Shown here: in pieces, positions 3,016-42,637 of the stretch | Layout of the letters: each line of letters opens with the position of its first letter | How positions within the stretch are numbered: the first letter of the stretch is position 1 | Assembly: GCA_964480175.1 (NCBI GenBank) | Contig: CAYZQM010000002.1 | Location: 25,855-80,106 of the forward strand | Direction of reading: 5' to 3' | DNA from: an uncultured Sandaracinaceae bacterium | GTDB lineage: Bacteria > Myxococcota_A > Polyangia > Polyangiales > Sandaracinaceae | DNA: 54,252 nt | Notes under the pieces: model-generated | The model's database searches: none | Seen by the model: the letters and a program-made list of their open reading frames with translations, nothing else | Told to the model about the DNA's origin: nothing | Position numbers and translations under genes: made by a program

Positions 3016-3151
3016 GGCTGGCTAGTGTCGCACGATTTGATCCGACGGCCCCGGTGCAAGCAGGGCAAGCGGGGATGGGGCCCCGCGCGCAGGGAGCGAA
3101 GCGACCGAAGCGTCGCGGGTGGGGCCCCGGCGGACTCACTCCGACGGGGGA

Positions 3152-4274: not shown

Positions 4275-5921
4275 TCAGCGGGGGCGGGAGAAGATGTCCG
4301 GGATCTTCAGGTCGCCGCCGCCCGTGCCGCCGGTGCCTCCGCCGCCCGGATCGTCGTCGCCACCGCCGCCGCTCGGGGGGCGGGCGACCAAGCGCAGCGT
4401 GACCGGCGCCATCCCTTCGCTCGGCGTCAGCGTCACCTCGCCGCGGGCGCGTCCGCGCGCGGCGCGGATCGTCACCTCTTGGCCGGCCGGCAGCTCGAAG
4501 GTGCAAGGCGTCTCGGTGCACACGTCGCCGCGATCGACGATCCACACGCGCGCGCCCGACGGGTTCGTCTCCATGCGGATGGCGACGCGCGCAGGACCCG
4601 CGTCGGGTGCGCCCGCGTCCGGCTCCTCGATCACCGGCGGGCCCGCGTCGGGCTCCAGGGCAGCCACGGCCACCGCGCCCGCGTCGGGTGCGTCCGCGAG
4701 CACGGGCTCGACGGTGTCGCGCGGACCGAGGGCGAGGTACGCGCCCACTCCCGCAGCGATCACCAGCGCCGCGACCAGCGCGATCCACGGCGCGTTGCTG
4801 CGCGGCGGCGGCGTCAGATCCATCTCGGTCGCCGCCGCGCCGATCGCCCGCGCGGTCTTCGCGCGCGCCTTCACCGGCTCGCCGTGCCCGTACAGCGTCT
4901 GCTTGCTGGTGGGATCGATCCGCACCGCTTGGCCCTCGAGCGCGCCCTCGAGCGCGCGGGCCATCTCGTCGCACGACTGGAAGCGATCCTCGGGCGCCTT
5001 CGCCAGCGCCTTGGTGATGAACGACTCGATCGCCGGGTTCTCGGCGTAGCTCGGGTTGAACGCGGCGAGCTGCGGGATCGGCTCGAACATGTGCTGCGTC
5101 AGGATCCCCATGAAGGTGTCGCCGACGAAGGGCACCTTGCCCGCGAGCATCTCGAAGAAGATCACCCCGAGCGCGTAGATGTCGACGCGGTGATCGAGGT
5201 CGGGCTTCCCCGCCGCCTGCTCGGGCGACATGTACTCGGGCGTCCCGAAGATCATCCCGGTCTTGGTCAGCTTGCGACCCGGCGCGCCGGGGGTCTCGAC
5301 GTCGCTCATCTTCGCGATGCCGAAGTCCACGATCTTCACGAAGTCCGCGCGGCCGTCGCGCTCGGTGAGGAAGATGTTCTCGGGCTTCATGTCCCGATGG
5401 ACGATCCCCTTGCCGTGCGCGGCGCCGAGCGCGCGGCAGCACTGCAAGATCACGTCGGCCGCGCGCGCGAGCGGCAGGATCGCCTCCTTGGCGAGCGCGT
5501 TCGCGAGGTCCTCGCCGGAGAGCAGCTCCATCACGAAGTACGAGGCGCCGTTCGGCATCTCGCCGAAGTCCGAGATGTCGACGATGTGCGCGTTGCCGAT
5601 GCGCGAGGCGCTCTTGGCCTCTTGGCGGAAGCGCTCGACCACTTCGGAGCGGCTGGAGAAGTCATCCCGCAGGATCTTGAGCGCCACCCGCTTCTCGAGC
5701 GCCGTGTGCTCCGCCTCGTACACGAAGCCCATCCCGCCCTCGCCGATGCGGCGGATGATCCGGTAGCGATCGTCGATGGTCAGCCCTACCAGCGGATCGC
5801 CGCCCTCGGGCTTGGGCATCTGCATCTGCGACGGCGTCTCGAGGCGCGTCGCGTCGTTCGGGCAGAAGACCTCGCCGCCAGCAAACTCGTTCTTGCAAGC
5901 CGGGCAGATCTTCACGGTCAA
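4275..5921 (-). CDS. Hanks-type Ser/Thr protein kinase with N-terminal zinc ribbon, TM helix and C-terminal PEGA-like domain
   Basis: CPACKNEF...FCPNDATRL zinc ribbon. Kinase motifs GEGGMGFVYEA, VALKIL, HRDMKPENIFL, DFGIAKM and GTPEYMSPEQ. TM segment WIALVAALVIAAGVGAYL. C-terminal PSGARVWIVDRGDVCTETPCTFELPAGQEVTIRA. TTG start per the track. Confidence 0.9.
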   Translation of the reverse strand: MTVKICPACKNEFAGGEVFCPNDATRLETPSQMQMPKPEGGDPLVGLTIDDRYRIIRRIGEGGMGFVYEAEHTALEKRVALKILRDDFSSRSEVVERFRQEAKSASRIGNAHIVDISDFGEMPNGASYFVMELLSGEDLANALAKEAILPLARAADVILQCCRALGAAHGKGIVHRDMKPENIFLTERDGRADFVKIVDFGIAKMSDVETPGAPGRKLTKTGMIFGTPEYMSPEQAAGKPDLDHRVDIYALGVIFFEMLAGKVPFVGDTFMGILTQHMFEPIPQLAAFNPSYAENPAIESFITKALAKAPEDRFQSCDEMARALEGALEGQAVRIDPTSKQTLYGHGEPVKARAKTARAIGAAATEMDLTPPPRSNAPWIALVAALVIAAGVGAYLALGPRDTVEPVLADAPDAGAVAVAALEPDAGPPVIEEPDAGAPDAGPARVAIRMETNPSGARVWIVDRGDVCTETPCTFELPAGQEVTIRAARGRARGEVTLTPSEGMAPVTLRLVARPPSGGGGDDDPGGGGTGGTGGGDLKIPDIFSRPR

Positions 5922-6028
5922 CGGAGGCGCCTCATCGCAGAACGAACCGGACGCGACGCTAGCAGAGCGCTCGCTCTGGGGTCAACGACGCGCCGAGGCC
6001 AGCACGCATCGTTCACACGCCGGCGCCT

Positions 6029-7016: not shown

Positions 7017-7895
7017 TCAGATCGGCAGCGCGGCCGGGGCGGGCCAGGTCTCGCCCACCCCGAAGCGGCCGTCGGTCTCTTCGACTTTCGCCATCGCGCA
7101 CTCGGCGTCGTGGGTGAAGAAGAGGCGCCCCTCGCGCGCCACCAAGTCCGTGAGCAGCGCGGTCTTCTCGTCGATCAAGAGCTCGGGGTAGCGGTCGTAG
7201 CCCATCGTGATCGGCAGGTGCACCCACGGGCGCCCAGGGATGAGATCGGCGCCGAACACGATGGGCCCTGCCTCGCTCGGCACCTCCGCGAGCATCAACC
7301 CGGGCGTGTGGCCCGACGATCGATGCAGGCGGTAGTCGGGCCCGAGCACGCCCGAGGTCTCGCCCTCGACGACCTCGAGCCGGCCGCTCCCCTCGAGCAG
7401 CCCGATGAGCTCGGGGATGAACGACGCCTTGTCTCTGGCGTGCGGATGCTTGGCCCGATCCCACGCCTCCGCCCCGACCACGAAGCGCGCGTTGGGGAAG
7501 AGCAGCGTCGGCGCCGCGCCCTCCTCGTACGCGCTCAAGAGCCCACCCGCGTGATCGAAGTGCAGGTGCGAGAGCACGACCACGTCGATCTGCTCGTGGC
7601 TCAGGCCGATCTCCGCGAGCGAGCGCAGGAGCACGTGCTCCGGCTCCACCACCCCGAATCGATCCCGCATCTTCGGAGAGAAGAACGCCCCGATCCCGGT
7701 CTCGAAGAGGATCCGCCGCGCTCGATCGCCGTCCTTCTCTTCGATGAGCATCGCCCGACAGGCCAGGGGGATCCGGTTGCGCTCGTCCGGCGCGATCCAC
7801 CGCTCCCACACGGCGCGGGGCGCGTTGCCGAACATCGCGCCCCCGTCGAGGCGCTGGGTGTTGCCCTTCAGGGCCGTCAGGGTGCGGGTGACCAT
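7017..7895 (-). CDS. MBL-fold metallo-hydrolase
   Basis: [14 protein letters not shown] (HxHxDH motif) and a later SSGHTPG. I prefer the ATG at 7895 (MVTRTL...) over the track GTG at 7937; the start is uncertain. Confidence 0.8.
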
Positions 7896-7996
7896 GCGGG
7901 TGGGTCTACCAGCCGGGCCCGCGACCTCCAACCTCACGCTTCTTTCTTCCTAGCGCTGGCCATCCGCCGCCATCTCGGGCTAACGTCCCCGCCACG

Positions 7997-8815
7997 ATGC
8001 TGGATCGCGAGCTGGTCGAGGCCGTCAAGGTCGCCCGTGAAGCAGGATCAATCCTCCTCGACATCTACGGGACCGACTTCGCCGTCGAGCAGAAGGGCCC
8101 GAGCGATCCCGTCACCGAGGCCGACCGCCAGGTGAACGCGCTCTTGGTCTCGCGCATCCGCGAGACCTTCCCCTCCGACGGCATCGTCGCGGAAGAGGGC
8201 GGCTCGCAGGTGGGCCGCGACCCGAGCCGGGTCTGGTACATCGATCCGCTGGATGGCACCAAGGAGTTCATCGCGAAGAACGGCGAGTTCTCCGTGATGA
8301 TCGGCCTGGCCGTCGAAGGCGAGGCGCGCCTCGGCGTCGTCTACCAGCCGAGCACCGGCAAGCTCTACCGAGGCGTCGTCGGCGACGGCGCGTTCTACGA
8401 GGTGGGCGACAAGACCTGGCTGCTGAAGGTCTCCGACACTGCGGATCCCGCGCAGCTGCGCTTGGTGGTCTCGCGCTCGCACCGCCCCGAGTCGACGGGC
8501 GCGCTGATGGAGAAGCTCGGCATCACCGCGGAGCGTCCCAGCGGTTCGGTCGGCTTGAAGGTCGGGCTCATCGCCGAGCGGCAGGCCGACCTCTACGTCC
8601 ACATGTCGAACCGCACGAGCAGCTGGGACGCGTGCGCGCCCGACGCGATCCTGCGCGCGGCCGGCGGACAGTTCACCGATCTGAGCGGTCGCCCGCTCCG
8701 CTACGACCCGGCCAAGACCGAGAACCCGCACGGGATCCTCGCGTGCAACCGCAAGTCGTTCGACAAGGTCCTGCCAGTCGTCGAAGAGCTCGCCAAGGGC
8801 GCCGGCCTCGTCTGA
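7997..8815 (+). CDS. cysQ: inositol-monophosphatase-family enzyme, CysQ-like 3'(2'),5'-bisphosphate nucleotidase
   Basis: PVTEADR, GIVAEE, WYIDPLDGTKEFI and SSWDACAP motifs in the IMPase/CysQ order; 272 aa. Confidence 0.75.
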   Translation: MLDRELVEAVKVAREAGSILLDIYGTDFAVEQKGPSDPVTEADRQVNALLVSRIRETFPSDGIVAEEGGSQVGRDPSRVWYIDPLDGTKEFIAKNGEFSVMIGLAVEGEARLGVVYQPSTGKLYRGVVGDGAFYEVGDKTWLLKVSDTADPAQLRLVVSRSHRPESTGALMEKLGITAERPSGSVGLKVGLIAERQADLYVHMSNRTSSWDACAPDAILRAAGGQFTDLSGRPLRYDPAKTENPHGILACNRKSFDKVLPVVEELAKGAGLV

Positions 8816-8830
8816 GCTCGACGTCCGCGC

Positions 8831-9610
8831 TCAGAACCTGAGGCGCACGCTCGCGCCGGCGTCTGCGTTCGGTGCGCCAGCGAGCAGCGAGACCTCGACG
8901 GACGCCTCGGTCGCATCGAGCAGCTCTTCGCTCCCGACCTGACCGACGATCAACATGACGAGTCCTGCGACCTCGAGCATGCCTGCGAGCGTCCCGATCA
9001 CCCACATCCCCTCGGCGTTCGATCCGCCGCCGTTGTCGATCATCGCGAGGTTGTGGAACACCGGGATGAACGTCAGCGGCCACAGCGGGGCCACCACCGA
9101 TCCTCCGACGTAGGCCGAGCCCAAGAGCGCGTGCCCGATGGTGGTGAGCACGTAGATGGGGAAGAAGACGGCCGCGCCGCCGGCCAAGAGGCCCACTCGA
9201 GGGCGACGCCCCGAGCGCGGGGGGATCGCTGCGCGCGGGTCTTCGGGGCTCCAGCCGCGGCCCGCCTCCATGCGTCGATCGCGCGAGCGGGTGTCATCGT
9301 GCTCGGGATCCCAACCTCGACCGCTCGTCACGCGGGCGCTGCCCGGATCGGGTGCCGTCTCACCCGGCGGAGCGAGCGCGGGTTCGGCGGCGGTCGCAGG
9401 CGCCACGACGCAATCGGCGCCCGAGCCCAAGAATCCCTCCGGGCAGCTCGGCGGGTCGCTGCAGCGGTTGGCGGCGACGTCGAAGGTCTGCCCGGGCCAG
9501 CAGCAATACCCACCGTCGACCGGGACGCGTCCCGTCTCACAGGCTTGCGCTTCGAGCCGACCGGCCACCGACAGGCACGTGAGGATCAGGAGCCCCGACC
9601 ACGATCGCAT
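8831..9610 (-). CDS. secreted/membrane protein with Cys-rich N-terminal module, function unknown
   Basis: Signal peptide MRSWSGLLILTCLSVAGRLEA. Cys-rich stretch CETGRVPVDGGYCCWPGQTFDVAANRCSDPPSCPEGF. Three hydrophobic helices and a tail ending ...ASVRLRF. Appears paralogous to 35026..35673. Confidence 0.6.
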   Translation of the reverse strand: MRSWSGLLILTCLSVAGRLEAQACETGRVPVDGGYCCWPGQTFDVAANRCSDPPSCPEGFLGSGADCVVAPATAAEPALAPPGETAPDPGSARVTSGRGWDPEHDDTRSRDRRMEAGRGWSPEDPRAAIPPRSGRRPRVGLLAGGAAVFFPIYVLTTIGHALLGSAYVGGSVVAPLWPLTFIPVFHNLAMIDNGGGSNAEGMWVIGTLAGMLEVAGLVMLIVGQVGSEELLDATEASVEVSLLAGAPNADAGASVRLRF

Positions 9611-9661
9611 GCGCGCAGGAGACCGAACGACGGCGATCCTGTCAACACGGCGGCGCCGCGA

Positions 9662-10375
9662 TCAGAGCGGGCGGCTGATGAGCGTCGCGAGCTGGGGGAC
9701 GAGCTTCTTTCGGAACGCCGGATCCATCGCGAGGTCTTGGCGCACCTCGAGCTCCATCGCGCGTCGGCCGTGTCGGTCGCCGTGGCTCGAGGCGACGTAG
9801 ATGAGGCCGGCCTTGCCGCTCCACGGCTCGTTGGCGCGCGCGTCGTAGCCGAGCGCGCTCAGCTCGCTCACCCACGCGTTGCCCAGCGCTTCTTCGCGAT
9901 CGAAGAGCACGCCGATCTCCACCTCGCGAGGGGAGCCTTCGTAGAGCGGAGTGAACGTGTGGATCGCGAGCACCATCGGGCAGCGCGTCGCGCGCAGCTC
10001 GCGATCGACCGTGTCGTGGAACGGGCGGTGGTAGCGCGACAAGCGCAGCGCGCGCTCGTCGTCCGACAGATCCTGGTTCAAGTGCACCGGCAGGCCCTCG
10101 GCGCTCGCGCGAAAGAGCGTGTCGCTCACATCGGGTCGATTGAGATCGATCAACAGGCGCGAGTAGCGGGCGAGCACCGCGGGCGCGTCGATCGCCTCGG
10201 CGAGCTCCAGGGTCAGATCGCGCGCGCCGAGATCGACGGCCCAGTGCGTGCCGACCAAGCGGCGGTCGGCCTCGGGCCACGCGTAGCCCTCCGGCAGGTC
10301 TTGGGATGCGTGCTCGCAGGTCAGGAACGCGGGCGCGTTCGCGCTGCCCGCGCGCACTTCGTAGCTGTCGCCCAT
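9662..10375 (-). CDS. N-formylglutamate amidohydrolase family protein
   Basis: Family-typical LTCEHAS, SRLLIDLNRP, YHRPFH and AIHTFTP motifs. ATG at 10375..10373 overlaps the upstream TGA (10377..10375) by 1 nt. I rejected the Arg-rich N-terminal extension of the track ORF up to 10813. Confidence 0.75.
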   Translation of the reverse strand: MGDSYEVRAGSANAPAFLTCEHASQDLPEGYAWPEADRRLVGTHWAVDLGARDLTLELAEAIDAPAVLARYSRLLIDLNRPDVSDTLFRASAEGLPVHLNQDLSDDERALRLSRYHRPFHDTVDRELRATRCPMVLAIHTFTPLYEGSPREVEIGVLFDREEALGNAWVSELSALGYDARANEPWSGKAGLIYVASSHGDRHGRRAMELEVRQDLAMDPAFRKKLVPQLATLISRPL

Positions 10376-12198
10376 CAGGCCGACTCGGCGAGCATCAAGG
10401 GACGACCGAGGGCCTGCTCGATGAGGCCGCGCAGCGGCGCGCCGCCGGGCTCCTGCTTGGGCAGGCAGCGGTCCATGTCGCGCACGATCTTGGAGAGGCC
10501 CTTGCGGAGCGCGGCGCGATCGTCGGCGACGTCGTACTCGAGGCGATCGAGATCGAAGCCGATGCGGTAGCTCCGCAGATCCGTCATCTCGACGAAGCGC
10601 TCGACCTGCTCGGGCCCGATCGCCTTGAGCGCGCGGCACACCAGCTCGACCACCACCTCTTGGGCCCCCGCGTAGTTCTTCTCCATCGTCGCCAGCGTGT
10701 CCGTCGGCGAGCGACGGTTCGTCAGATCGATGTGCAGGTCGGCCAAGAGCGAAGGGAAGAGCGGGAAGGGCACGAAGTCGGGCTTCGCGCTCCCGGGCGC
10801 GAGCTCGGCCCACGCCTTGAGGATCTTCTGCGCCTTCTGGTTCAGCGCGTGAAAGCGCCGGTGGGTCTCGCGGAAGCGCGCGTGCAGCTCGGGCTCGACG
10901 GCGAAGATCCGGTTGAAGAAGTAGGGGCAGACGAAGGACCAGTAGTGGAAGTTGTCCCAGTAGAGCTTCGCGGGCAGGACGGCGGGGGCGCCCATGATGT
11001 GGCTGTGTCCCCGGAAGGTCGTCGCCGTGACCTCGGCGAACGCCAAGAAGAACTCGTTGAGCTCGCGCTCGCGCGCCGCCTGCATCGCGTCGCTCTCGTG
11101 GCGATCGAGGTCGGCGCGGATCAGCTCGGTGGTCATCGAGGCGCCGATGCCGATGAAGTCCGAGCCCGGCGAGTAGAGGGGGTCGAGGAAGATCCCCGCC
11201 TCACCGATGCACGACCAGCGCTGGCTCGCGGAGAACACCTGCTTCGATCCGTACGCGTAGCGGCGGAGCGCGGCGAAGTCTTCCCACGGCAGGTCCGCGA
11301 GGTGCGCCGCGAGCGCGGGCTCGTGCTTCTCGATGAACGCCTTGGCCGTCTCGGGGCGGCCGAAGGTGGCGAACGGGTGGTGCTCTTCACCCGCGACGAT
11401 CCCGATCGACTGGTAGCCGGTCGACAGGGGAATCACCCAGATCCAGTAGCCCTTGCCGCAGAAGTGGCTGGTCGAGAGCCAGCGCCGTCCATCGAGATCG
11501 CGCCCGTGCCAGCGGTGCTCGGTCTCGGGCACCAAGTCGGCGACGTTCACGCGCTGCGCGACCCGAAACCACGCCGAGCTGTGGTGGTGATTGGGATCGG
11601 TGCTCAGCTGGAGCTTGTTCTGCAAGAGACGACGGCGTCCGGTCGCGTCGATCAGCCAGCGGGCCTCGAGCGTCTCCTTGCCTGTGTCCTTGCGCGCGAT
11701 CTGCACCTGGTGCGCCGCATCCCCCGAGCCGAGCTCGATCTGAAAGACCGACGCACCCTCCAGCAGCGTCGCGCCCGCGTCCTCGACCATCGCGCGCAGA
11801 TCCGTCTCGAAGCGCCCGCGATCGAGCTGGTAGCTCGGCACCACCGGCTGCTCGCTCGGGCCGAGCTCGCGGCGCTCGGCGACCGGCAGCTGCCCATCGC
11901 CCACGAAGTAGCGCAGCCCGAACTTCACCAGCTGTCGCGCTTCCAAGTACGACTTGAGCCCGAGCACGTCGGAGAAGAAGTGGGCGCCGATCTCGACCGA
12001 CGACTCGCCCACCTTGAAGCACGCGTCGGGCAGCGGGCGCGTGCTCGGCTCGACCACGGCGACCGAGAGCGAAGGGAGCTGCTGGCGGAGGTGCAGCGCG
12101 CTGGTCAGCCCCGCCAGGCCGCCACCCATGATCAGGACGTCGACGCGCTTCATCGAGGCGCGCATCATGGGACGGCGCCCGAGACCGAACAAGCGCAC
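10375..12198 (-). CDS. flavin-dependent halogenase-like FAD enzyme (paralogue A)
   Basis: VDVLIMGGGLAGL (GxGxxG), KVGESSVEI, VKFGLRYF, GYWIWVIPL (WxWxIP) and FLDPLYSPGSDF (FxxPxxSxG). The start could instead be the ATG at 12153 (MKRVDVL...). Confidence 0.75.
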   Translation of the reverse strand: MRLFGLGRRPMMRASMKRVDVLIMGGGLAGLTSALHLRQQLPSLSVAVVEPSTRPLPDACFKVGESSVEIGAHFFSDVLGLKSYLEARQLVKFGLRYFVGDGQLPVAERRELGPSEQPVVPSYQLDRGRFETDLRAMVEDAGATLLEGASVFQIELGSGDAAHQVQIARKDTGKETLEARWLIDATGRRRLLQNKLQLSTDPNHHHSSAWFRVAQRVNVADLVPETEHRWHGRDLDGRRWLSTSHFCGKGYWIWVIPLSTGYQSIGIVAGEEHHPFATFGRPETAKAFIEKHEPALAAHLADLPWEDFAALRRYAYGSKQVFSASQRWSCIGEAGIFLDPLYSPGSDFIGIGASMTTELIRADLDRHESDAMQAARERELNEFFLAFAEVTATTFRGHSHIMGAPAVLPAKLYWDNFHYWSFVCPYFFNRIFAVEPELHARFRETHRRFHALNQKAQKILKAWAELAPGSAKPDFVPFPLFPSLLADLHIDLTNRRSPTDTLATMEKNYAGAQEVVVELVCRALKAIGPEQVERFVEMTDLRSYRIGFDLDRLEYDVADDRAALRKGLSKIVRDMDRCLPKQEPGGAPLRGLIEQALGRPLMLAESA

Positions 12199-12312
12199 CC
12201 GATGCGCGTGGCCCAGCGGTGCAGGAGCGCCGTGAGGTCCCGCTCAGCGCGCCCGCCCGCGCTTGGCCAGACGACGGGCGCGGCGTAGATCACGGTCCTT
12301 CCTCGGACGCCC

Positions 12313-13956
12313 ATGACTGAAGACCACGCGCACTCGATCGACGTCGCCATCCTCGGCGGCGGCCTCGCCGGAAACCTCGTCGCCCGCCAGCTCCGCATGC
12401 GTTTGCCGAGCGCGTCGATCGCGATCTTCGAGAAGGACACCGAGCGCGGCTTCAAGGTCGGCGAGTCGTCCGTCGAGATCGCCAGCCACTTCTTCATCAA
12501 GAAGCTCGGCCTCTCGAGCTACATGTACGACGCGCAGCTGCCCAAGAACGGGCTGCGCTTCTTCTTCGACACGCCGGCCAAGGACGCGCCGCTCTTCGAG
12601 ATGAGCGAGGTCGGCTCGAACAAGATGCCGATGATTCCGACGTTCCAGATCGATCGGGCGCGCTTCGAAGAGGACCTGCTCGAGATGAACCGCCGCGCGG
12701 GCATCGACGTGCAGATCGGCGTCAGCATCAAGGACCTGGCGCTGCACGAGGCGGGCGAGCCCACCCACCGCCACGCCTTCAGCGTGGTGCGCGAGGATGG
12801 GAGCAGGACCCGGGTGCGCGCGCGCTGGGTGATCGACGCCAGCGGCCGGAGCCAGCTGATCAGCAAGCTGCGGGGCTACCGCGTGCCCGAGAAGCACGCG
12901 TGCGGCGCCGTGTGGGGGCGCTTCACCGACGTCACCGACATGGACTCGCTCATGGAGTACCCCGTCTCGGTCCCGCCGTTCTCCGGCAGGGAGACCCCGG
13001 TGATGCAGAAGGCCTGGCCCGGCGCGAACGCGTCGAAGGCGCGAGCGCACCACACCGCACGGATGCTCTCGACCAACCACTTCTGCTACCGGGGCTATTG
13101 GATCTGGTTCATCCCGATCGCCCGCGGCATCACGTCGCTCGGCGTGGTGGGCGAGGTCTTCGATCCGAAGATGTCGAGCGAGCAGGGCTTCGTGGACTTC
13201 CTGAAGGGGCACCGCGCGGTCGCCTCGCTGATCGAGAACGCCCGCTGCCTCGATGTCGGCAGCTACGCTCGCTATGCGTACGGCACCAGCCGCTACTTCG
13301 GGGCGGACGAGCGCTGGGCGATGATCGGCGAGGCCGCGGCGTTCAGCGATCCCTTCTACTCACCGGGCTCGGACTACATCGCGATCGAGAGCGACATGAT
13401 CACCGATCTGATCGCGCGCGACTTCGCCGGCGAGTCCGACGCCGAGCGGGCCGAGCGCGGCGAGCTCTACGACGCGTTCATGAAGTTCCGGTACGAGGCC
13501 ACGATGCTCCTCTACCGCAACCAGTACCCCGCGCTGGGCAGCTACGAGACGATGCGGTTGAAGTGGAACTTCGACATCGCCTGTTACTACAACCTCTGGC
13601 TCGACTTCTACATGAGGGACTACCACCTCGAGCCTCGCAAGATCCGCGAGCAGCTGCGCCGCAAGGAGTACGTGCTCTCGGCCCTGCGCAACTTCAGCGA
13701 GCTGTTCCAGAAGCTGGTGCGCGAGCTCGAGCAGAGCGGCCACTACCACCGCAGCAACCTGGGCCGCTTCAACGACGGCACCGATCTGCTCTACTTCCAG
13801 AGCGAGATCGGTCAGGAGCGCAAGAAGGGCGCGGTGAACCAGCGCACCGAAGAGGTCTTCAACTTCTGCCTGAAGGAAGCGCAGCGGATCCTCGGCAAGG
13901 AGAGCGGCGAGGGGCTCGAGCTCACCCAGTTCATGGAGAGCGGGCCGCTCGCCTGA
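12313..13956 (+). CDS. flavin-dependent halogenase-like FAD enzyme (paralogue B)
   Basis: IDVAILGGGLAGN (GxGxxG), KVGESSVEI, PKNGLRFFF, GYWIWFIPI (WxWxIP) and FSDPFYSPGSDY (FxxPxxSxG). Motif order matches the divergent neighbour. Confidence 0.75.
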   Translation: MTEDHAHSIDVAILGGGLAGNLVARQLRMRLPSASIAIFEKDTERGFKVGESSVEIASHFFIKKLGLSSYMYDAQLPKNGLRFFFDTPAKDAPLFEMSEVGSNKMPMIPTFQIDRARFEEDLLEMNRRAGIDVQIGVSIKDLALHEAGEPTHRHAFSVVREDGSRTRVRARWVIDASGRSQLISKLRGYRVPEKHACGAVWGRFTDVTDMDSLMEYPVSVPPFSGRETPVMQKAWPGANASKARAHHTARMLSTNHFCYRGYWIWFIPIARGITSLGVVGEVFDPKMSSEQGFVDFLKGHRAVASLIENARCLDVGSYARYAYGTSRYFGADERWAMIGEAAAFSDPFYSPGSDYIAIESDMITDLIARDFAGESDAERAERGELYDAFMKFRYEATMLLYRNQYPALGSYETMRLKWNFDIACYYNLWLDFYMRDYHLEPRKIREQLRRKEYVLSALRNFSELFQKLVRELEQSGHYHRSNLGRFNDGTDLLYFQSEIGQERKKGAVNQRTEEVFNFCLKEAQRILGKESGEGLELTQFMESGPLA

Positions 13957-14164
13957 TCGCTTCCGCGTCGGAGACCGCAGTGGGCGCTCGCCCGTCTCTG
14001 GCGTGCCGCCGGGGTGCTGAATGCCTCGCGGTTGCCTTACGTCTCCGGCGGGCTCGAAAACCCCGTGTTTCGCCCAGGTGGCGATCTTGCGGCCTTCCTG
14101 GTAAGCCCGCGCCCCTTCTGACTGACCCGGCCATCGGCCGGACCCGACACCAGCGAGACGAACC

Positions 14165-14503
14165 TTGGCCCCGATCCCCGTCCCCAGCCGCGAAGAGGTC
14201 TTCGACAAGATCACCGAGATCTTGAGCGACTCCTTCGAGCTCGATCGCAAGAAGATCACCACGGCCTCGACCCTCTACGATGAGCTGGACCTCGACTCGA
14301 TCGACGCGATCGACATCTTCACGCAGCTCCGCGAGATCACCGGCCGCCGCCCGGACCCCGCCGACGCCCGCAACGTCCGCACCGTCGACGAGCTGATCAC
14401 GTTCGTGCTCGCCGAGATCGACAAGACCAACGACGGCGTCCCCGAGGGGCCCTCGCGCCCACCCACCCCGGAAGAGCTCGCCGAGGGTGAGAAGAAGGGC
14501 TGA
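14165..14503 (+). CDS. acyl carrier protein (stand-alone)
   Basis: 112 aa. LYDELDLDSIDAIDIF carries the phosphopantetheine Ser in a DSI context. TTG start per the track, so the exact start is uncertain. Confidence 0.75.
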   Translation: MAPIPVPSREEVFDKITEILSDSFELDRKKITTASTLYDELDLDSIDAIDIFTQLREITGRRPDPADARNVRTVDELITFVLAEIDKTNDGVPEGPSRPPTPEELAEGEKKG

Positions 14504-14519
14504 GGGCGTAGAACGACCG

Positions 14520-15764
14520 ATGCGTCGCGTCGTGATCACGGGCATGGGGGTGGACTCGCCGATCGGGGTCGGCGTCGCGGAGAACGTCGCTTCGCTGAAG
14601 GCGATGCGCGGCGGCATCCGCCTGATGCACGAGTGGAACAAGGTCTCGGACCTGCACACCCGGATCGGCGGCCCGGTCAGCGGCATCGATCTGATGGCGC
14701 ACTATCCCCGGCGCCGGCGGCGCACCATGGGGCTGGTCGGGCTCTACGCGATGCACACAGCCGATCAGGCGCTGGAGCAGGCGGGCCTGACCGGCGAGGT
14801 GGGCGAGGCGATCCTGAGCGGCGGGCGCTGCGGCGTCGCGTACGGATCGACCACCGGCAGCTCGCAGGCGCTCGAGGACTTCTGTGGTCCGCTCTTCACC
14901 GAGCACACGATGCGGGGCCTGGATTCGAGCGCGTACCTCAAGTTCATGACCCACACCTGCGCCGCGAACCTCGCGAGCAGCTACGGGATCAAGGGACGCG
15001 TCATCCCCGCGATCAGCGCCTGCACCAGCGGCAGCCAGTCGATCGGCTTCGCGTTCGAGGCCGTCCGCGGCGGGGTGCAGGACGTGATGATCGCGGGTGG
15101 CGCCGAGGAGCTGCACTACGCGAGCGCTGTGACCTTCGATCTCTTGATGGCGACCAGCGTCCGCTACAACGAGACCCCCGAGCTGTCGCCGCGTCCCTTC
15201 GACACCAAGCGCGATGGCCTGGTGATCGGCGAGGGCGCAGGCACGGTGATCCTCGAGGACTACGAGCACGCCAAGCGCCGCGGCGCGACCATCCTCGCCG
15301 AGCTGATCGGCTTCGGCACCAACTGCGATGGGCTGCACATCACCGCGCCCAGCGAGGGCGGGATGCGCGGCGCGATGGAGCTGGCCCTGGCGGATGCCCG
15401 GGTGCACCCCACCGACGTCGACTACGTGAACATGCACGGCACCGCGACGGAGATCGGCGACATCGCGGAGAGCCAGGCGACGGCGAGCCTCTTTCAGCGG
15501 CCGATCCCGGCGAGCACCCAGAAGAGCTACACGGGCCATACGCTCGGCGCGTGCGGCGCGATCGAGCTGGTCTACTCGGTCGCGATGATGCGCGAGGGCT
15601 TCCTCGCCGCCAACCGCAACCTCGACGAGCTCGATCCGCGCTGCGGCAAGCTGGGCTACGTGCGCGAGACCACCAGCGCGCGCCCGCGCCTGATCATGAC
15701 GAACAACTTCGCGTTCGGCGGGGTGAACACGTCGATGCTGGTCAAGGCGTTCGATCCCTCCTGA
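14520..15764 (+). CDS. beta-ketoacyl-ACP synthase (KAS I/II type)
   Basis: MRRVVITGMGV N-terminus, active-site Cys in AISACTSGSQ, and His-His in MHGTATEIGD and TGHTLGACG, followed by NNFAFGGVN. The ATG at 14520 gives a typical N-terminus. Confidence 0.85.
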   Translation: MRRVVITGMGVDSPIGVGVAENVASLKAMRGGIRLMHEWNKVSDLHTRIGGPVSGIDLMAHYPRRRRRTMGLVGLYAMHTADQALEQAGLTGEVGEAILSGGRCGVAYGSTTGSSQALEDFCGPLFTEHTMRGLDSSAYLKFMTHTCAANLASSYGIKGRVIPAISACTSGSQSIGFAFEAVRGGVQDVMIAGGAEELHYASAVTFDLLMATSVRYNETPELSPRPFDTKRDGLVIGEGAGTVILEDYEHAKRRGATILAELIGFGTNCDGLHITAPSEGGMRGAMELALADARVHPTDVDYVNMHGTATEIGDIAESQATASLFQRPIPASTQKSYTGHTLGACGAIELVYSVAMMREGFLAANRNLDELDPRCGKLGYVRETTSARPRLIMTNNFAFGGVNTSMLVKAFDPS

Positions 15765-15927
15765 TGGAGGGGCCCGAGTAACCGGTCAAGTCTCCAGCAC
15801 TCGGCTTTTCAGGCGGCTTTCAGCGGGAGTGCGCCCGCAAGCGAGTGTTGCGGAGCGTACTCACGTACGTGACGAGACCGAGTGCGGACGCAAACCCCGA
15901 TCAAAGTCGCCTGGAAAGCCGTGGCCG

Positions 15928-16524
15928 ATGCGAAGTGAGCGCGTACAGAAGAAGAGCCGCTGGCCCAAGGGGCCGTTCCCCGACAAGTGGTCGTTCGCCA
16001 ACGTCGAGCGGCGCTTGGTCGGCGCGTGGCAAGCGCGCTCGTCGGCCTGGGACGCGCTGATCGCGAGTGGCGCCGAGCCTCTTCCCCCGCTCGACGACGT
16101 CTACGTCCGGGTCTTTGCCGGCGGCAGCGATCAGGCGATCGACGCGCTGCGCGCCGCGGGCTGCACGGTGCACGGCTGGATCGAGCCGACGAGGACTGCG
16201 GTCGAGGGCGGGGCGCAGGTCGTGCTACCCACGGCCGAGCGCTTCGACGCGCTCGTCGCGCTCGGGGTCGCCGGTCCGCACTGGGGCATCGGCAACCGCG
16301 CGATCATCCGCTTCCTGATCCAAGCACGCGCCTTCTCGAGCTTCGAGGTGCTGGCCGGCGGCGAGGACTGCCTGGTGCTCCGCATGCACGCAAAGAACGC
16401 GGACGACGCCGAGCTCTTGGCTGAGCGCTTGATGCAGCTCGTCCCCCTCTTGGCAGACGCGTCCGACCTCGCCGCCCACCTCGAGACCGGCACCCCGATC
16501 ACACTCCCCTGGACCCCGCGCTGA
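15928..16524 (+). CDS. hypothetical protein
   Basis: High third-position GC from the ATG at 15928. I found no recognisable motif and trimmed the track ORF, which starts at 15829. Confidence 0.45.
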   Translation: MRSERVQKKSRWPKGPFPDKWSFANVERRLVGAWQARSSAWDALIASGAEPLPPLDDVYVRVFAGGSDQAIDALRAAGCTVHGWIEPTRTAVEGGAQVVLPTAERFDALVALGVAGPHWGIGNRAIIRFLIQARAFSSFEVLAGGEDCLVLRMHAKNADDAELLAERLMQLVPLLADASDLAAHLETGTPITLPWTPR

Positions 16525-16572
16525 AGTCCCCTACGTACAGGCGCCGCAGCGGCACGGACGCGCCACATCGTG

Positions 16573-17068
16573 TCATGTCGGTGCGATCGTCGATCGCAGG
16601 ACGTCGAGTAGCTCGCGCACGAACCTCGCCTTGTTCCGCCCCTTCGGCATGAGGGCATGCACGGGCGTCGATGCCCACTGCCACTCTGGGAGCACTCGCT
16701 CGAGCTCGACGGCACTCGCGCGGAACCCCACCGCCACTCCTGGATGGCCTGGGCCATCGCGGAGTTCGCTCCTTCTTCGTTCCGATGGCCTGGGCCTTGG
16801 AGATCGCTCGCCTTTCTTCGCTGGCGTAGGCGCACGGCGTCGGGACGTAGGTCTTGGGTGCGGGCGGGACCGCTGGGCCTTTCCGAGGACACCGTGGCCG
16901 TCGTTCGGCAGCCGCGACGCTCGGGGAGCGTAGGCCGTCTCGCTCGGCCGACGACCTCGGCGAAAGAAAGTTTGGCAACGCTCGCAGCGCCACCTCGATG
17001 GGCACGCCACGCGCGACGGTCATGTCGGCCGAGCGCAACTCCCATCGAGAGAACTGCATCATGGCCAA
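16573..17068 (-). pseudogene. possible frameshifted gene remnant, function unknown
   Basis: On the reverse strand the frame with high GC3 switches at least three times. The run is MAMMQFSRWELRSADMTVARGVPIEVALRA..., then ...FAEVVGRARRPTLPERRG..., then ...KTYVPTPCAYASEERRAISKAQAIGTKK, then ...ANSAMAQAIQEWRW, then ...AVELERVLPEWQWASTPVHALMPKGRNKARFVRELLDVLRSTIAPT*. No single frame is convincing across the roughly 500 bp. Confidence 0.3.
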
Positions 17069-20437: not shown

Positions 20438-20752
20438 GCGACTAGATGCGCCAGACGAGTGTCCGTTCGCAAAAGTCTGCGAAGGCTACCACTCGCAAAA
20501 TATCGTCACAAGGAAGCGACGCGATCGAGCGCGCGAGGCCATCCGAGGACGAACGGGTCGAGGTAGGGGTGGGGGTGGAAGAAGCCATGCGTGGATGTAG
20601 GGCCGTGCATCTCGAGGGTGCATGGCTGGCGCGCGATCGGGTCACCTGCGTTGTGTCGCCTCTCACCGCCGGGGGTTCCGAAGCCTGTTCACCGACCCCA
20701 TGACCGGGCCGGCCTTGCGTGCGACACCGCCTCGGGGCGATGCTTGGCGGGC

Positions 20753-22450
20753 ATGCGCGGCTTCCGGCAGTTCTGCCTCGCTCTCTCGGTGACGCTGTTC
20801 CTCCCTGCGTGCGCGCCCTCGGCCACGCAGCTCATCGTCTCGGTGGACACCGATCTTCCGGTGCGGACCGCCATCGATCGGGTGACGGTGAGCGTCAGTC
20901 GCGAGGGGACGACCCACGAAGAGAGCGGGGTCCTCAACGATCGCCGCAGCTTGCCCCTCACCCTCTCGGTGATCCCGGAGGACGGCGAGTCGCTCGGGCC
21001 GATCCGGGTGACCGCCACGGGCTACCTCGCGAGCGAAGTGGTCGTCACCCGAAGCGCGACGGTGACGCTGGTGCGGGGCGAGACCCGGGTGCTGCCGCTC
21101 TTTCTCTTGGCTGACTGCCGCGACATCGTCTGCCCCCGCGCGGGCGACACCTGCGGCGAAGAGGGCTGCGTCCCCGAAGAAGTGGATCCGATGCCCTGGA
21201 CGGGGACGCCGCCCACCATCGGGATGGACGCCGGTCTCGACGCCGCGCGGCTCGACGGCGCCGTCGACGGAGCGGTGCGTGACGGGGGTCGCGACGCGCC
21301 GATCGCCACCGACTGCACCGAGGACGGCGACTGCGACGACGGCGCGGCCTGCACGGCCGACACCTGCAACGCAGCGGGGAGCTGCGAGCACGTGGGCTCC
21401 GATGCGGCGTGCGACGACGGCAACCCGTGCACCACCGACGCGTGTGAAGTCGGCGGCTGCGTGCACCCCGCGGCCGTGGGCGTCTCGTGCGAGGACAGCC
21501 TCTACTGCAACGGGCTCGACACCTGCGGCGCGGATGGCGCGTGCTCGGTGCACGGCGGCGATCCCTGCGGAGGAGGCGCCTGCGTCGAGGCGAGCGACAC
21601 CTGCGACGTGGTCTGCGGCTCGCGGGCCGACTGCCCGGCGGACAGCTTCGGCGCGTGGGGCGCGTGCGACTACGGCGACGGCTGCGACGAGAGCGCGACC
21701 CGGAGCCGCACCGCGCGACGCTGGAGTTGTGTGTCGAGCGCGTGCGTCTCGTCGGACGAGACCGACAGCGAGCCCTGCACCCGCGACACCGACGGAACGA
21801 CGTGCGGGGCAGGCAGCTGCGGTGGCTGGGGGAGCTGCGGCGGCTTCAGCGACACCTGCGACGAGTCGGGCACCGAGAGCCGCACGTGCTCCGACGTCGT
21901 GTGCACGGCGGGCTCGTGCGGCGCGGTGATGCGCACCGAGAACCGCGCCTGCTCCCGGAGCACCGGCGGCACGATGTGCGCGGCGAGCAGCTGCGGTGGG
22001 TGGGGTAGCTGCGGTGGGTATTCGGACGCCTGCGACGAGAGCGGGACCCAGAGCCGTACCTGCAACGACTACGCGTGCGCGGGCGGCACCTGCGCAGCGA
22101 GCCCGCGCTCCGAGAACCAGGCGTGCAGCCGCGACACCGACGGCGCGAGCTGCGGCAGCACGAGCTGCGGCGCTTGGAGCACGTGCGTCTACTCGACCGA
22201 GTGCGACGAGACGGGCAGCCAGTCGCGCACCTGCACCGATCGGATCTGCAGCGCGGGCTCGTGCGGCTCGCCGACCCGCACCGAGACCAACAACAGCTGC
22301 TCGACGCGCGACACCGATGGCGTGGACTGCGGAGACGACTTCGACTGCCAGGTCGATCGCTGCAGCGCCGGCTCCTGCAACTTCGTCAGCGGTGGCTGCA
22401 CCGGCGGTCGCCAGTGCTGTTACCCCGGCTGTTTCACGATCTGTCCTTAG
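20753..22450 (+). CDS. Cys-rich repeat lipoprotein
   Basis: Lipobox start MRGFRQFCLALSVTLFLPAC at ATG 20753. Myxobacterial Cys-rich repeat style segments (CDDGAACTADTCNAAGSC, CDDGNPCTTDACEVGGC), followed by four tandem modules of about 57 aa. Confidence 0.75.
   Translation: MRGFRQFCLALSVTLFLPACAPSATQLIVSVDTDLPVRTAIDRVTVSVSREGTTHEESGVLNDRRSLPLTLSVIPEDGESLGPIRVTATGYLASEVVVTRSATVTLVRGETRVLPLFLLADCRDIVCPRAGDTCGEEGCVPEEVDPMPWTGTPPTIGMDAGLDAARLDGAVDGAVRDGGRDAPIATDCTEDGDCDDGAACTADTCNAAGSCEHVGSDAACDDGNPCTTDACEVGGCVHPAAVGVSCEDSLYCNGLDTCGADGACSVHGGDPCGGGACVEASDTCDVVCGSRADCPADSFGAWGACDYGDGCDESATRSRTARRWSCVSSACVSSDETDSEPCTRDTDGTTCGAGSCGGWGSCGGFSDTCDESGTESRTCSDVVCTAGSCGAVMRTENRACSRSTGGTMCAASSCGGWGSCGGYSDACDESGTQSRTCNDYACAGGTCAASPRSENQACSRDTDGASCGSTSCGAWSTCVYSTECDETGSQSRTCTDRICSAGSCGSPTRTETNNSCSTRDTDGVDCGDDFDCQVDRCSAGSCNFVSGGCTGGRQCCYPGCFTICP
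21641..22330 (+). repeat. four in-frame tandem repeats of about 172 nt (about 57 aa) encoding a 6-Cys module
   Basis: The modules align by eye. 1: FGAWGACDYGDGCDESATRSRTARRWSCVSSAC... 2: SCGGWGSCGGFSDTCDESGTESRTCSDVVCTAGSC... 3: SCGGWGSCGGYSDACDESGTQSRTCNDYACAGGTC... 4: SCGAWSTCVYSTECDETGSQSRTCTDRICSAGSC... Confidence 0.8.
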
Positions 22451-31366: not shown

Positions 31367-32494
31367 TCAGCGCAGAAGCAGGAACGCGGCGAAGAGCGCG
31401 CCTACCCCGACGAGCGCCAAGAGCGCGGCCGCGCCAAGCACGATGAAGGGCATGTTCGACTGCGCCGCTGGGGCGACCGCGGCGACGGGCGTCGGCATGT
31501 TCTGCACGGTCTGCGGGATCGCCTGCATCGCGCCGGCGCTCTGCACCCGCTGCGCGGGCGGCGGCTGCGAGGGCACGCTGAACTGCGGCTGGGCGGGCGG
31601 CACCGAGACCGGCGGCTGCGAGGTGGGCCGCGACAAGACCGCCTGCAGCGCCTGACCGAACTCCTGCGCGCTCTGGAAGCGATCGTTCGGACGCTTCGCG
31701 AGCGTCTTGTTGATCACGTCCCACAGCCCCTGGGGAAAGGTCCGGCTCGGCGCCCGCACGTGCAGCGGGATGGGCGTCTCCTTGATGTGCCGCTGGATGT
31801 ACTCCATCGGCTGGTTCGCATCGAAGGGCAGCTTCCCGGTGAGCAGCTCGTAGAGGATGATCCCCAGCGAGTAGATGTCGCTGCGGCCATCGAGCTTCTC
31901 GCCGCGCGCCTGCTCGGGGCTCATGAACTCGGGCGTGCCGAAGACCATCCCCTCTTGGGTGAGGATCAGCGAGCCGGGCCGCATCTCGCGCTCGGTCACC
32001 TTCGCCAGACCGAAGTCGAGCACCTTCGGGTAGTCCGCGATGCCACCGAGGTTGGTGAGGAAGATGTTCTCGGGCTTCAGATCGCGGTGCACGATGCCCT
32101 GCGTGTGCGCCTCCTGAAGCGCGCTGCACACCTGCACCATGATCGGGATCGCGCGCTCGGGCGCCATCGGCCCTTCGGCACGCACCGTCTGCGCGAGGTT
32201 CTTGCCCGCGAGGTACTCCATCACGAAGTAGCAGGCGCCGTCCTCGAGCTGACCGTAGAGGAAGACCTTGGCGGTGTTGGGGTGCGACAGATGGCTCATC
32301 GCGCGCGCCTCGCGGCGGAAGCGCGAGACCAGATCTGCGCGCGCGAGGTAGCGCGGGTGCAGGATCTTCACCGCGACGAAGCGGCGCATGTCGGGCTGCT
32401 CGGCCTTGTAGACCGCACCCATGCCGCCGCTCCCGATCTTCTCGAGGATCTTGAATTGGTTCGCGAGATCGCGACCTACGTAGGGATCCGCCAC
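31367..32494 (-). CDS. Hanks-type Ser/Thr protein kinase, C-terminally TM-anchored
   Basis: GSGGMGAVYKA, VAVKIL, HRDLKPENIFL, DFGLAKV and GTPEFMSPEQ. C-terminal TM segment FIVLGAAALLALVGVGALFAAFLLL. I infer the GTG start at 32494 (VADPYVGRDL...) and rejected the upstream extension to 32713. Confidence 0.85.
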   Translation of the reverse strand: MADPYVGRDLANQFKILEKIGSGGMGAVYKAEQPDMRRFVAVKILHPRYLARADLVSRFRREARAMSHLSHPNTAKVFLYGQLEDGACYFVMEYLAGKNLAQTVRAEGPMAPERAIPIMVQVCSALQEAHTQGIVHRDLKPENIFLTNLGGIADYPKVLDFGLAKVTEREMRPGSLILTQEGMVFGTPEFMSPEQARGEKLDGRSDIYSLGIILYELLTGKLPFDANQPMEYIQRHIKETPIPLHVRAPSRTFPQGLWDVINKTLAKRPNDRFQSAQEFGQALQAVLSRPTSQPPVSVPPAQPQFSVPSQPPPAQRVQSAGAMQAIPQTVQNMPTPVAAVAPAAQSNMPFIVLGAAALLALVGVGALFAAFLLLR

Positions 32495-32597
32495 GGCGCC
32501 GCGAGGATAACAAGGTGCGCCCCAGGCACAACGACCATTTTTGTGAGGATCCCGAAGCTTGCCCTCCGGACGAATCTGGATTCCTCTTCGCCCCACG

Positions 32598-42583: not shown

Positions 42584-42637
42584 GCCCGTGAGTGTGCCCG
42601 ATGTCGTCGGCTCCGGTCACCTGCTAGGGTGGCGCGC

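Follow-up and report, generated by a model that had tools for sequence, protein, structure and literature searches.

What do two head-to-head genes for halogenase-like flavoenzymes do beside a stand-alone acyl carrier protein (ACP), a beta-ketoacyl-ACP synthase (KS), and a gene of the N-formylglutamate amidohydrolase (FGase) family? These genes lie in a 54,252-nt stretch of DNA, analysed as a whole and hereafter called the window, from an uncultured Sandaracinaceae bacterium of the Myxococcota (GCA_964480175.1, contig CAYZQM010000002.1, positions 25,855–80,106). An earlier note on this DNA described them as an orphan locus that might halogenate an ACP-tethered acyl or amino-acyl intermediate. 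The orphan status does not hold: a module made up of the flavoenzyme pair (HalA and HalB), the KS, and the ACP is conserved in Myxococcota. Its KS is orthologous to ApeR, and the family of its two halogenase-like enzymes is also encountered in xanthomonadin and aryl-polyene clusters. On balance, we read the locus as a reduced, Sandaracinaceae-like myxobacterial variant of the aryl-polyene/xanthomonadin type II polyketide synthase (PKS) cluster, holding the KS-ACP elongation pair and two tailoring halogenases of an aryl-polyene-like pathway.

The first step towards an answer is the identity of the two flavoenzymes, which share 37% of their residues. Their membership of the flavin-dependent halogenase superfamily is well supported by the full motif set, by the sequence matches in the PDB, and by the fold ranking of HalA. 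The GxGxxG, WxWxIP, and FxxPxxSxG motifs, the Lys motif, and the GES segment, all noticed earlier, were verified in both proteins (Table 1), and an alignment of 15 diverse family members shows GGGxAG, KVGES, the Lys, GLRxF, WxWxIP, and FxDPxYSxG to be invariant. The Lys (Lys82 in HalA, Lys78 in HalB) had been proposed to lie near the position of the catalytic Lys in RebH and PrnA; besides being family-invariant, it pairs in HMMER alignments with the Lys of QKFGAKF in the halogenase-like structure 3NIX and, in ChlB4 and PltA, with the segment KK[YF]GA, in agreement with that prediction. All 17 PDB sequence matches of HalA and HalB are flavin-dependent halogenases or 3NIX, including ChlB4, PltA, CmlS, CndH, Mpy16, Bmp2, MalA', CtcP, and RadH (E 1e-5 to 1e-16). 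When an AlphaFold2 model of HalA (pLDDT 87, pTM 0.89) was compared with the PDB using Foldseek, ranks 1–45 were likewise occupied by halogenases or 3NIX, and the first monooxygenase (KMO) followed at rank 46. Together with PF04820 scores above the Pfam cut-off, this bears out the suggestion that both enzymes are halogenase-like rather than monooxygenase-like, and we consider them two probable halogenating enzymes.

Whether they act on carrier-bound substrates is a separate matter. The earlier note had likened the pair to the carrier-dependent CndH/PltA subgroup on the strength of the GES segment; the segment is present, but it does not decide the assignment, as CmlS and others share it and the best fold matches include free-substrate halogenases. 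HalA and HalB resemble PltA, CndH, Mpy16, Bmp2, and CmlS in fold and motif set, including [IV]GES and a Lys approximately 30 residues downstream; they share the presence of an extra C-terminal region with CndH and CmlS, and a carrier protein is encoded nearby. CmlS is also the best NCBIfam match of both flavoenzymes, although far under its cut-off. However, identity to these halogenases is only 16–22%, and the helical C-terminal domain of 200–260 aa in HalA and HalB has no counterpart in them. The carrier-dependent PltA, CndH, Mpy16, and Bmp2 are among the PDB matches (E 1e-7 to 1e-16), but free-substrate enzymes such as CtcP, PltM, RadH, and MalA' give equally good fold matches, and free-substrate halogenases score equally well by sequence.

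The second step is the company that the family keeps. Xanthomonadins were recognised as brominated aryl polyenes as early as the 1970s; two bromines, one on the ring and one on the chain, are present in xanthomonadin I. Aryl-polyene and xanthomonadin clusters with a putative halogenase are familiar, and the enzyme family is recognisable. It is large: thousands of metagenomic proteins match it, and those with a named source belong mostly to Myxococcota, including Sandaracinaceae and Nannocystaceae. When species-representative genomes were scanned, members also turned up in Xanthomonas, Luteibacter, many Burkholderiales, Steroidobacteraceae, Methylococcaceae, Planctomycetota, Acidobacteriota, Chitinophaga, Flavobacteriales, Microcystis, and Streptomyces. 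Among 92 collected loci with a family member, 60 contain a KS, 43 a chain length factor (CLF), 33 a ketoreductase (KR), and 28 an MMPL gene. In X. prunicola, the homologue (40% identity to HalA) is located between KS-CLF-GT2 and KR-MMPL-acyltransferase genes, and the same layout with a "halogenase gene" has been described for xanthomonadin clusters (PMC3691225). In X. prunicola and X. axonopodis, this GT2- and KR-flanked gene encodes a protein that is ~40% identical to HalA and ~36% to HalB over ~450 aa. The similarity extends to the carrier and condensing enzymes, since the ApeR-type KS and the ACP of four gammaproteobacterial clusters (L038, L069, L075, and L076) are 49–51% and 38–39% identical, respectively, to those of the window. 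The two halogenases of the window also match the two bromines of xanthomonadin I in number. In contrast to the xanthomonadin cluster, which has one family member, the window has two, lacks the KS-CLF pair, GT2, KR, MMPL, acyltransferases, and XanB2/XanA2, adds the FGase-family gene and a further gene, orfX, and belongs to a different phylum, the Myxococcota.

These relatives also bear on the possibility that HalA and HalB are flavin monooxygenases (hydroxylases or epoxidases) or have another redox role on a halogenase scaffold. The family is uncharacterised in the literature, its identity to proven halogenases is low (16–22% for HalA in the Foldseek matches), FAD_binding_3 is also above its Pfam cut-off, and homologues occur in Azoarcus clusters whose describing paper, in a term search, mentions no halogenated product. 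Yet the Lys and WxWxIP, which distinguish halogenases from monooxygenases, are invariant in both subfamilies, the 45 best structural matches of the HalA model place halogenases and 3NIX ahead of KMO and PieE, and xanthomonads with the gene have brominated pigments, in contrast to Lysobacter, where the gene is missing and the pigment is not brominated (PMC3691225). We therefore regard a purely oxygenating or other redox function as unlikely.

The KS provides an independent link to aryl polyenes. Judged by its sequence, it is an ApeR orthologue of the FabB-like, homodimeric type and no generic fatty acid KS. Among solved structures, it is closest to 4EWG (E 3.6e-123) and 7F27 (E 1.9e-120), which are the ApeR proteins of Paraburkholderia (P. 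phymatum) and of the Acinetobacter baumannii aryl-polyene cluster, respectively (PMC8358021); they outrank FabB (~1e-72) and FabF (~1e-66) by about 50 orders of magnitude in E value. Structural work on the A. baumannii enzyme singled out Arg64, Arg68, Phe118, Tyr135, Ala163, Phe202, His268, and the gate residue Phe394, linked Tyr135 and Phe202 to aryl stacking, and found that ApeR alone yields short polyenes with up to about four double bonds (PMC8358021). All eight residues are kept in the aligned KS of the window (R64, R68, F121, Y139, A167, F206, the His of CDGLHIT, and the Phe of NNFAFGG), and the Cys168-His306-His340 triad is intact (ACTSG, HGTAT, and GHTLG). The ACP carries its phosphopantetheine attachment Ser in the motif DLDSI (residues 42–46), and the ratio of nonsynonymous to synonymous substitution rates (dN/dS) of its gene is 0.05 relative to the closest related locus (L083). 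That a stand-alone ACP and a KS directly follow HalB was correctly recognised earlier, and both pass the cut-offs of their NCBIfam models (NF003757 and NF006587). The window thus resembles aryl-polyene clusters in its ApeR-type, FabB-like KS with an adjacent ACP. In those clusters, however, ApeR is auxiliary beside ApeO-ApeC and is accompanied by ApeH, ApeI, ApeP, and ApeQ, whereas the ApeR-type KS is the only KS here, and none of ApeH, ApeI, ApeP, ApeQ, or ApeO-ApeC is linked to it. As a side observation, the ACP ends in a Pro/Glu-rich tail of ~25 aa (…KTNDGVPEGPSRPPTPEELAEGEKKG), and ACPs of the reduced loci described below are longer (112–119 aa) than those of the fuller clusters L089 and L091 (95–102 aa).

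The third step concerns how widely the arrangement is conserved. The divergent HalB/HalA layout occurs in at least 11 Myxococcota loci (L001, L003, L004, L007, L008, L011, L014, L083, L087, L089, and L091), of which L001 is from Sandaracinus amylolyticus and the others, L007 aside, from metagenome-assembled genomes or metagenomes. In all of these except L007, which contains the pair alone, the halogenases are joined by an ACP and an ApeR-type KS that is 57–95% identical to that of the window (L083 and L087 counted as L083/84 and L087/88). Six loci (L003, L004, L008, L014, L089, and L091) represent fuller clusters, in which the genes around the core encode dehydratases of the ApeI-like and ApeP-like types, DUF3261, a PlsC-type acyltransferase, an MMPL-like protein, and sometimes a KR. 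No CLF was found within 10 kb on either side of any paired Myxococcota locus. The "ApeR-only, two-halogenase" architecture is thus a distinct Myxococcota cluster type. No description of it, or of its reduced form with the FGase-family gene and orfX, was found in the literature, and nothing specific was found there on aryl polyenes of Sandaracinus.

The pairing of HalA and HalB had been considered an unusual duplication. The 15-member alignment instead separates two subfamilies: HalA-type proteins of ~590–600 aa with an RPLPDA insert, an extra C-terminal insert, and a long helical C-terminal domain, and HalB-type proteins of ~515–550 aa ending in PLA. In a neighbour-joining tree with midpoint rooting, which is approximate, the HalB clade consists of Myxococcota genes only, each with a partner in the HalA clade; HalA falls into one group with the xanthomonadin-type enzymes and other lineages, and the branch point of the HalB clade lies outside it. 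This placement indicates that the pair is old rather than a recent duplication. HalA and HalB represent two old paralogous subfamilies, and their divergent arrangement is conserved across Myxococcota. A recent tandem duplication was rejected on the basis of the 37% identity and the separate clades in this approximate tree. An obligate HalA-HalB heterodimer is also unlikely, as either one has been lost naturally in relatives.

Within this cluster type, the window belongs to a reduced subclade. Its closest relatives are L083/84 (HalA 88% identical, syntenic), L087/88 (67%, with other flanks), L092, and hd_si79d; they share the FGase-family gene, ACP, KS, and orfX and lack the dehydratase, acyltransferase, and exporter genes. 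The five genes listed in the earlier note therefore do co-occur in related genomes (L083/84 and L087/88 in the neighbourhood survey), and orfX, which that list did not contain, follows the KS as a sixth conserved gene. In L092 (5642–10591), the order is FGase<- ->HalB-ACP-KS-orfX with HalA missing; hd_si79d has FGase<-HalA<- ->ACP-KS-orfX with HalB missing. As these two natural variants show, each halogenase is individually dispensable, as would be expected of tailoring enzymes acting at separate sites. The metagenome of L092 contains a HalA-clade gene on another contig (L085), beside a gene for a 411-aa Trp_halogenase-like protein and a Na+/H+ exchanger gene. Compared with the fuller clusters, the window's subclade has lost the dehydratase, acyltransferase, and exporter genes and has gained the FGase-family gene and orfX. 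No record of the window's exact HalA protein was found in the databases, and the context was taken from these relatives; a search of sequencing runs returned metagenomes only (soil, activated sludge, root, and biofilter), each with at most 16% of the sampled words.

The coupling of HalA to the FGase-family gene was confirmed in the sequence, where the HalA stop codon and the ATG of the downstream gene share one base in TGATG (...GGCCTGATGGGCGAC...). It is not a general feature of the cluster type, however, but is confined to the window's subclade and is absent from S. amylolyticus and all fuller clusters. Within the subclade, FGase orthologues adjoin the locus in L083/84, L087/88, L092, and hd_si79d, and the gene thus stays with the locus even where HalA is missing; its dN/dS is 0.20 relative to L083. 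A true HutG was rejected because the protein reaches 29.5 bits against TIGR02017, with a cut-off of 278.75, and matches only the broad family PF05013. Its nearest structure, 2ODF, is the uncharacterised protein Atu2144 (E 8e-30). L089 also contains an FGase gene, at a distance of 8 kb from its halogenase pair; since it shares no more than 34% identity over 80 aa and lies beside MATCAP, it was treated as unrelated. In the window's subclade, orfX always follows the ApeR-type KS (dN/dS 0.31 relative to L083). It is rare, with 10 homologues among 5.8 billion proteins and 32 representatives among 1.84 billion in a profile search, which also revealed remote relatives among DUF4253 domains located C-terminally in ankyrin-repeat proteins. 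The structural model of orfX is confident (pLDDT 84) and has no PDB match below E 0.001. In L089 and L091, an acyltransferase occupies the same position, but orfX has no BLASTP similarity to these enzymes, and a diverged acyltransferase was rejected.

Could such a small gene set be the decaying remnant of a once-complete aryl-polyene cluster, without any product? Most genes of the fuller clusters are indeed missing, and individual halogenases have been lost in some relatives. However, all six open reading frames are intact, as are the catalytic residues of the KS, ACP, HalA, and HalB, and the gene order is kept among subclade relatives with differing flanks. Purifying selection acts on all six genes (dN/dS 0.05–0.31 relative to L083 and 0.15–0.48 relative to L087). 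We consider decay very improbable.

The harder question is what the locus can do without the missing enzymes. In a Pfam survey of the gene-sized open reading frames and with tblastn, the 54-kb window yielded no KR, dehydratase, enoylreductase, acyltransferase, or thioesterase, extending to the whole window what had been stated for the locus, and no CLF, adenylating enzyme, or second KS. More specifically, the window contains no XanB2 chorismatase or ApeH/XanA2 adenylating enzyme (Pfam survey), no dedicated KR (ApeQ) or ApeI/ApeP dehydratases, and no MMPL/LolA-type export genes or lipid-anchor acyltransferase. The other gene-sized open reading frames are unrelated according to Pfam (SpoVR, Ser/Thr kinases, a metallo-beta-lactamase-fold protein, inositol monophosphatase, RelA/SpoT, phosphatidylserine decarboxylase, a methyltransferase, GH92, and others), and the locus therefore stands alone within the window. 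Sandaracinus amylolyticus shows where such functions may be encoded. Its locus L001 consists of the four-gene core, with the FGase-family gene and orfX absent, and a second locus 1.66 Mb from this KS-ACP-HalB/HalA core (L002, 5202–12318; CP070225.1, ~5.31–5.33 Mb) contains ApeI-like, ApeP-like, KR, and two-transmembrane (2TM) genes as well as a third halogenase paralogue that is 47% identical to HalA and is coupled to a 183-aa open reading frame. Systems of this kind can therefore be split between loci. Physical separation is also reported for the arcuflavin clusters of Azoarcus, which are not linked (PMC3949708).

Alternatively, the locus may encode a self-contained small pathway that makes no aryl polyene at all. 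NodF/NodE-type modules consist of an ACP and a KS only and borrow the enzymes of housekeeping fatty acid synthesis. The window shares with them a stand-alone ACP and an elongating KS without KR, dehydratase, or enoylreductase in the operon, and differs in that its KS is of the ApeR type and that halogenases accompany the module. In such a pathway, the ACP and KS would divert a housekeeping fatty-acyl or beta-ketoacyl intermediate, the two halogenases would halogenate it, perhaps at an activated alpha-carbon by analogy with the proposal for CmlS, and the FGase-like hydrolase would release or trim the product. This would fit the absence of CLF, aryl-activating enzyme, KR, dehydratase, acyltransferase, and exporter genes from the window and its closest relatives, the constant subclade set of FGase-family gene, ACP, KS, and orfX, and the position of CmlS as top NCBIfam match, far below its cut-off though it is. 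In L087 (1–3563), genes for a class III aminotransferase, LuxE (acyl-protein synthetase), and LuxC (acyl-CoA reductase) adjoin the orfX-KS-ACP-HalB operon in convergent orientation; this may be a coincidence, or it may hint at chemistry involving fatty acids, aldehydes, or amines. These neighbours are found in one lineage only, however, and a pathway unrelated to aryl polyenes would leave unexplained why the KS retains the equivalents of the aryl-stacking Tyr135 and Phe202 (PMC8358021) and why orthologous halogenase pairs in fuller clusters have ApeI-like and ApeP-like dehydratases, an MMPL-like exporter, and DUF3261 as neighbours. We judge this pathway to be fairly unlikely.

Several points also weigh against the aryl-polyene-like reading that we prefer. 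No CLF, ApeH/XanA2, or XanB2 was found in the window or within 10 kb of the paired Myxococcota loci, and an "aryl" starter is therefore unsupported. As the 54-kb window contains no KR or dehydratase, their supply in trans is an assumption taken from another genome. There is no linked flavin reductase, no biochemical characterisation of any HalA/HalB family member was found in the literature, and no report was found there that tests the "halogenase" of the xanthomonadin or aryl-polyene clusters, widespread as these are. The arcuflavin paper, in a term search, does not mention a halogenated arcuflavin, although the Azoarcus homologue is annotated as a halogenase. Lastly, carrier dependence cannot be read from the sequence. 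For the substrate, the amino-acyl part of the earlier proposal found no support, and a better guess would be an intermediate of the aryl-polyene-like or polyenoyl-ACP kind.

If the aryl-polyene-like reading is correct, the ACP would carry the starter (aryl or another acyl group) and the growing chain, and the ApeR-type KS would catalyse a few condensations with malonyl-ACP. Ketoreduction and dehydration would be supplied in trans, comparable to the distant ApeI-like, ApeP-like, and KR genes of S. amylolyticus. HalA and HalB would use O2, halide, and FADH2, the last provided by a flavin reductase encoded elsewhere, to form hypohalous acid, which the conserved Lys would direct to the substrate. 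The two enzymes may halogenate different positions of the ACP-bound or released intermediate, in analogy to xanthomonadin I with its bromines on ring and chain. A part in release or processing is conceivable for the FGase-like hydrolase and for orfX; for the hydrolase in particular, this function is a guess.

A bolder interpretation is that the six genes form a complete, autonomous pathway that evolved from an aryl-polyene cluster and leads, in Sandaracinaceae-like myxobacteria, to a new class of doubly halogenated small acyl or aryl metabolites. Instead of an outer-membrane pigment, the product could then be, for example, a signal or toxin; the FGase-family enzyme would perform an unprecedented off-loading or amide-processing step, and HalA and HalB would be the first halogenases known to act in a carrier-dependent manner on polyenoyl- or beta-ketoacyl-ACP. 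This is doubtful at present. The locus, together with its natural single-halogenase variants, provides a minimal system (one ACP, one ApeR-type KS, and two halogenases) that bears on whether these enzymes are true halogenases, whether they act on carrier-bound intermediates, and how the two sites are distinguished. The locus further documents a Myxococcota-specific architecture (HalA and HalB with ApeR only and no CLF) and its stepwise reduction. Genome-mining tools will probably overlook or misclassify such clusters, because their core PKS genes are distributed over more than one locus.

The features of the locus are listed in Table 1. The window has a G+C content of ~70%, and open reading frames were filtered by the G+C content of third codon positions (GC3). 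The five genes described earlier exist at or near the positions given then, with GC3 values of 0.90–0.95, typical of coding sequence, and matches in Pfam and NCBIfam; six genes of coding type span 9662–16524. For HalA, the gene was called correctly, but its 5' end was revised from the upstream GTG at 12198 to 12168. The resulting spacer between HalA and HalB presumably carries a bidirectional promoter. A scan for promoters and terminators (8700–17000) found no sigma-70-like site, and terminator-like matches in this region are not meaningful.

Table 1. Genes, spacer, and halogenase motifs of the locus (window coordinates; residue numbers refer to the respective protein).
Feature	Position	Strand	Length or residues	Remarks
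FGase-family (PF05013) amidohydrolase-like gene	9662..10375	-	237 aa	PF05013 E 2e-31; PDB 2ODF E 8e-30
HalA, flavin-dependent halogenase-like	10375..12168	-	597 aa	PF04820 63.5 bits (cut-off 21)
HalA FLDPLYSPG	11164-11190	-	residues 327-335	
HalA WIWVIP	11428-11445	-	residues 242-247	
HalA KFGLRYF (Lys82)	11905-11925	-	residues 82-88	
HalA KVGES	12001-12015	-	residues 52-56	
HalA GGGLAG	12109-12126	-	residues 15-20	
HalA/HalB divergent intergenic spacer	12169..12312		144 bp	counted from the HalA start at 12168
HalB, flavin-dependent halogenase-like	12313..13956	+	547 aa	PF04820 42.8 bits, above threshold
HalB GGGLAG	12355-12372	+	residues 15-20	
HalB KVGES	12454-12468	+	residues 48-52	
HalB KNGLRFF (Lys78)	12544-12564	+	residues 78-84	
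HalB WIWFIP	13099-13116	+	residues 263-268	
HalB FSDPFYSPG	13342-13368	+	residues 344-352	
Stand-alone ACP	14165..14503	+	112 aa	TTG start; PP-binding (Pfam); NF003757 82 bits (cut-off 65)
ApeR-type beta-ketoacyl-ACP synthase (KS)	14520..15764	+	414 aa	NF006587 516 bits (cut-off 470)
orfX, distantly DUF4253-like	15928..16524	+	198 aa	DUF4253 E 0.008 (Pfam)

Some genes elsewhere in the window were also noted. The long open reading frame at 20567–22450 (+) is an uncertain gene call, with GC2 (G+C at second codon positions) exceeding GC1 (at first positions), a single Dicty_CTDC repeat match, and an overlap with several high-GC3 antisense open reading frames. At 7017–7949 (-), the window encodes a metallo-beta-lactamase-fold protein whose L083 orthologue weakly matches the Anti-Pycsar Apyc1 family (precomputed annotation). 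A 913-aa SpoVR-like protein (277–3021, -) is interrupted by an intein, with two SpoVR stretches on either side of a LAGLIDADG_3 domain (E 2e-16) and an Intein_splicing match of 33 bits, just under the cut-off. Finally, the protein encoded at 40781–42616 (-) is a fusion of a Ser/Thr protein kinase domain with a periplasmic substrate-binding domain of the phosphonate type, and three more Ser/Thr kinases are encoded at 4275–5981, 31367–32725, and 32547–34166.

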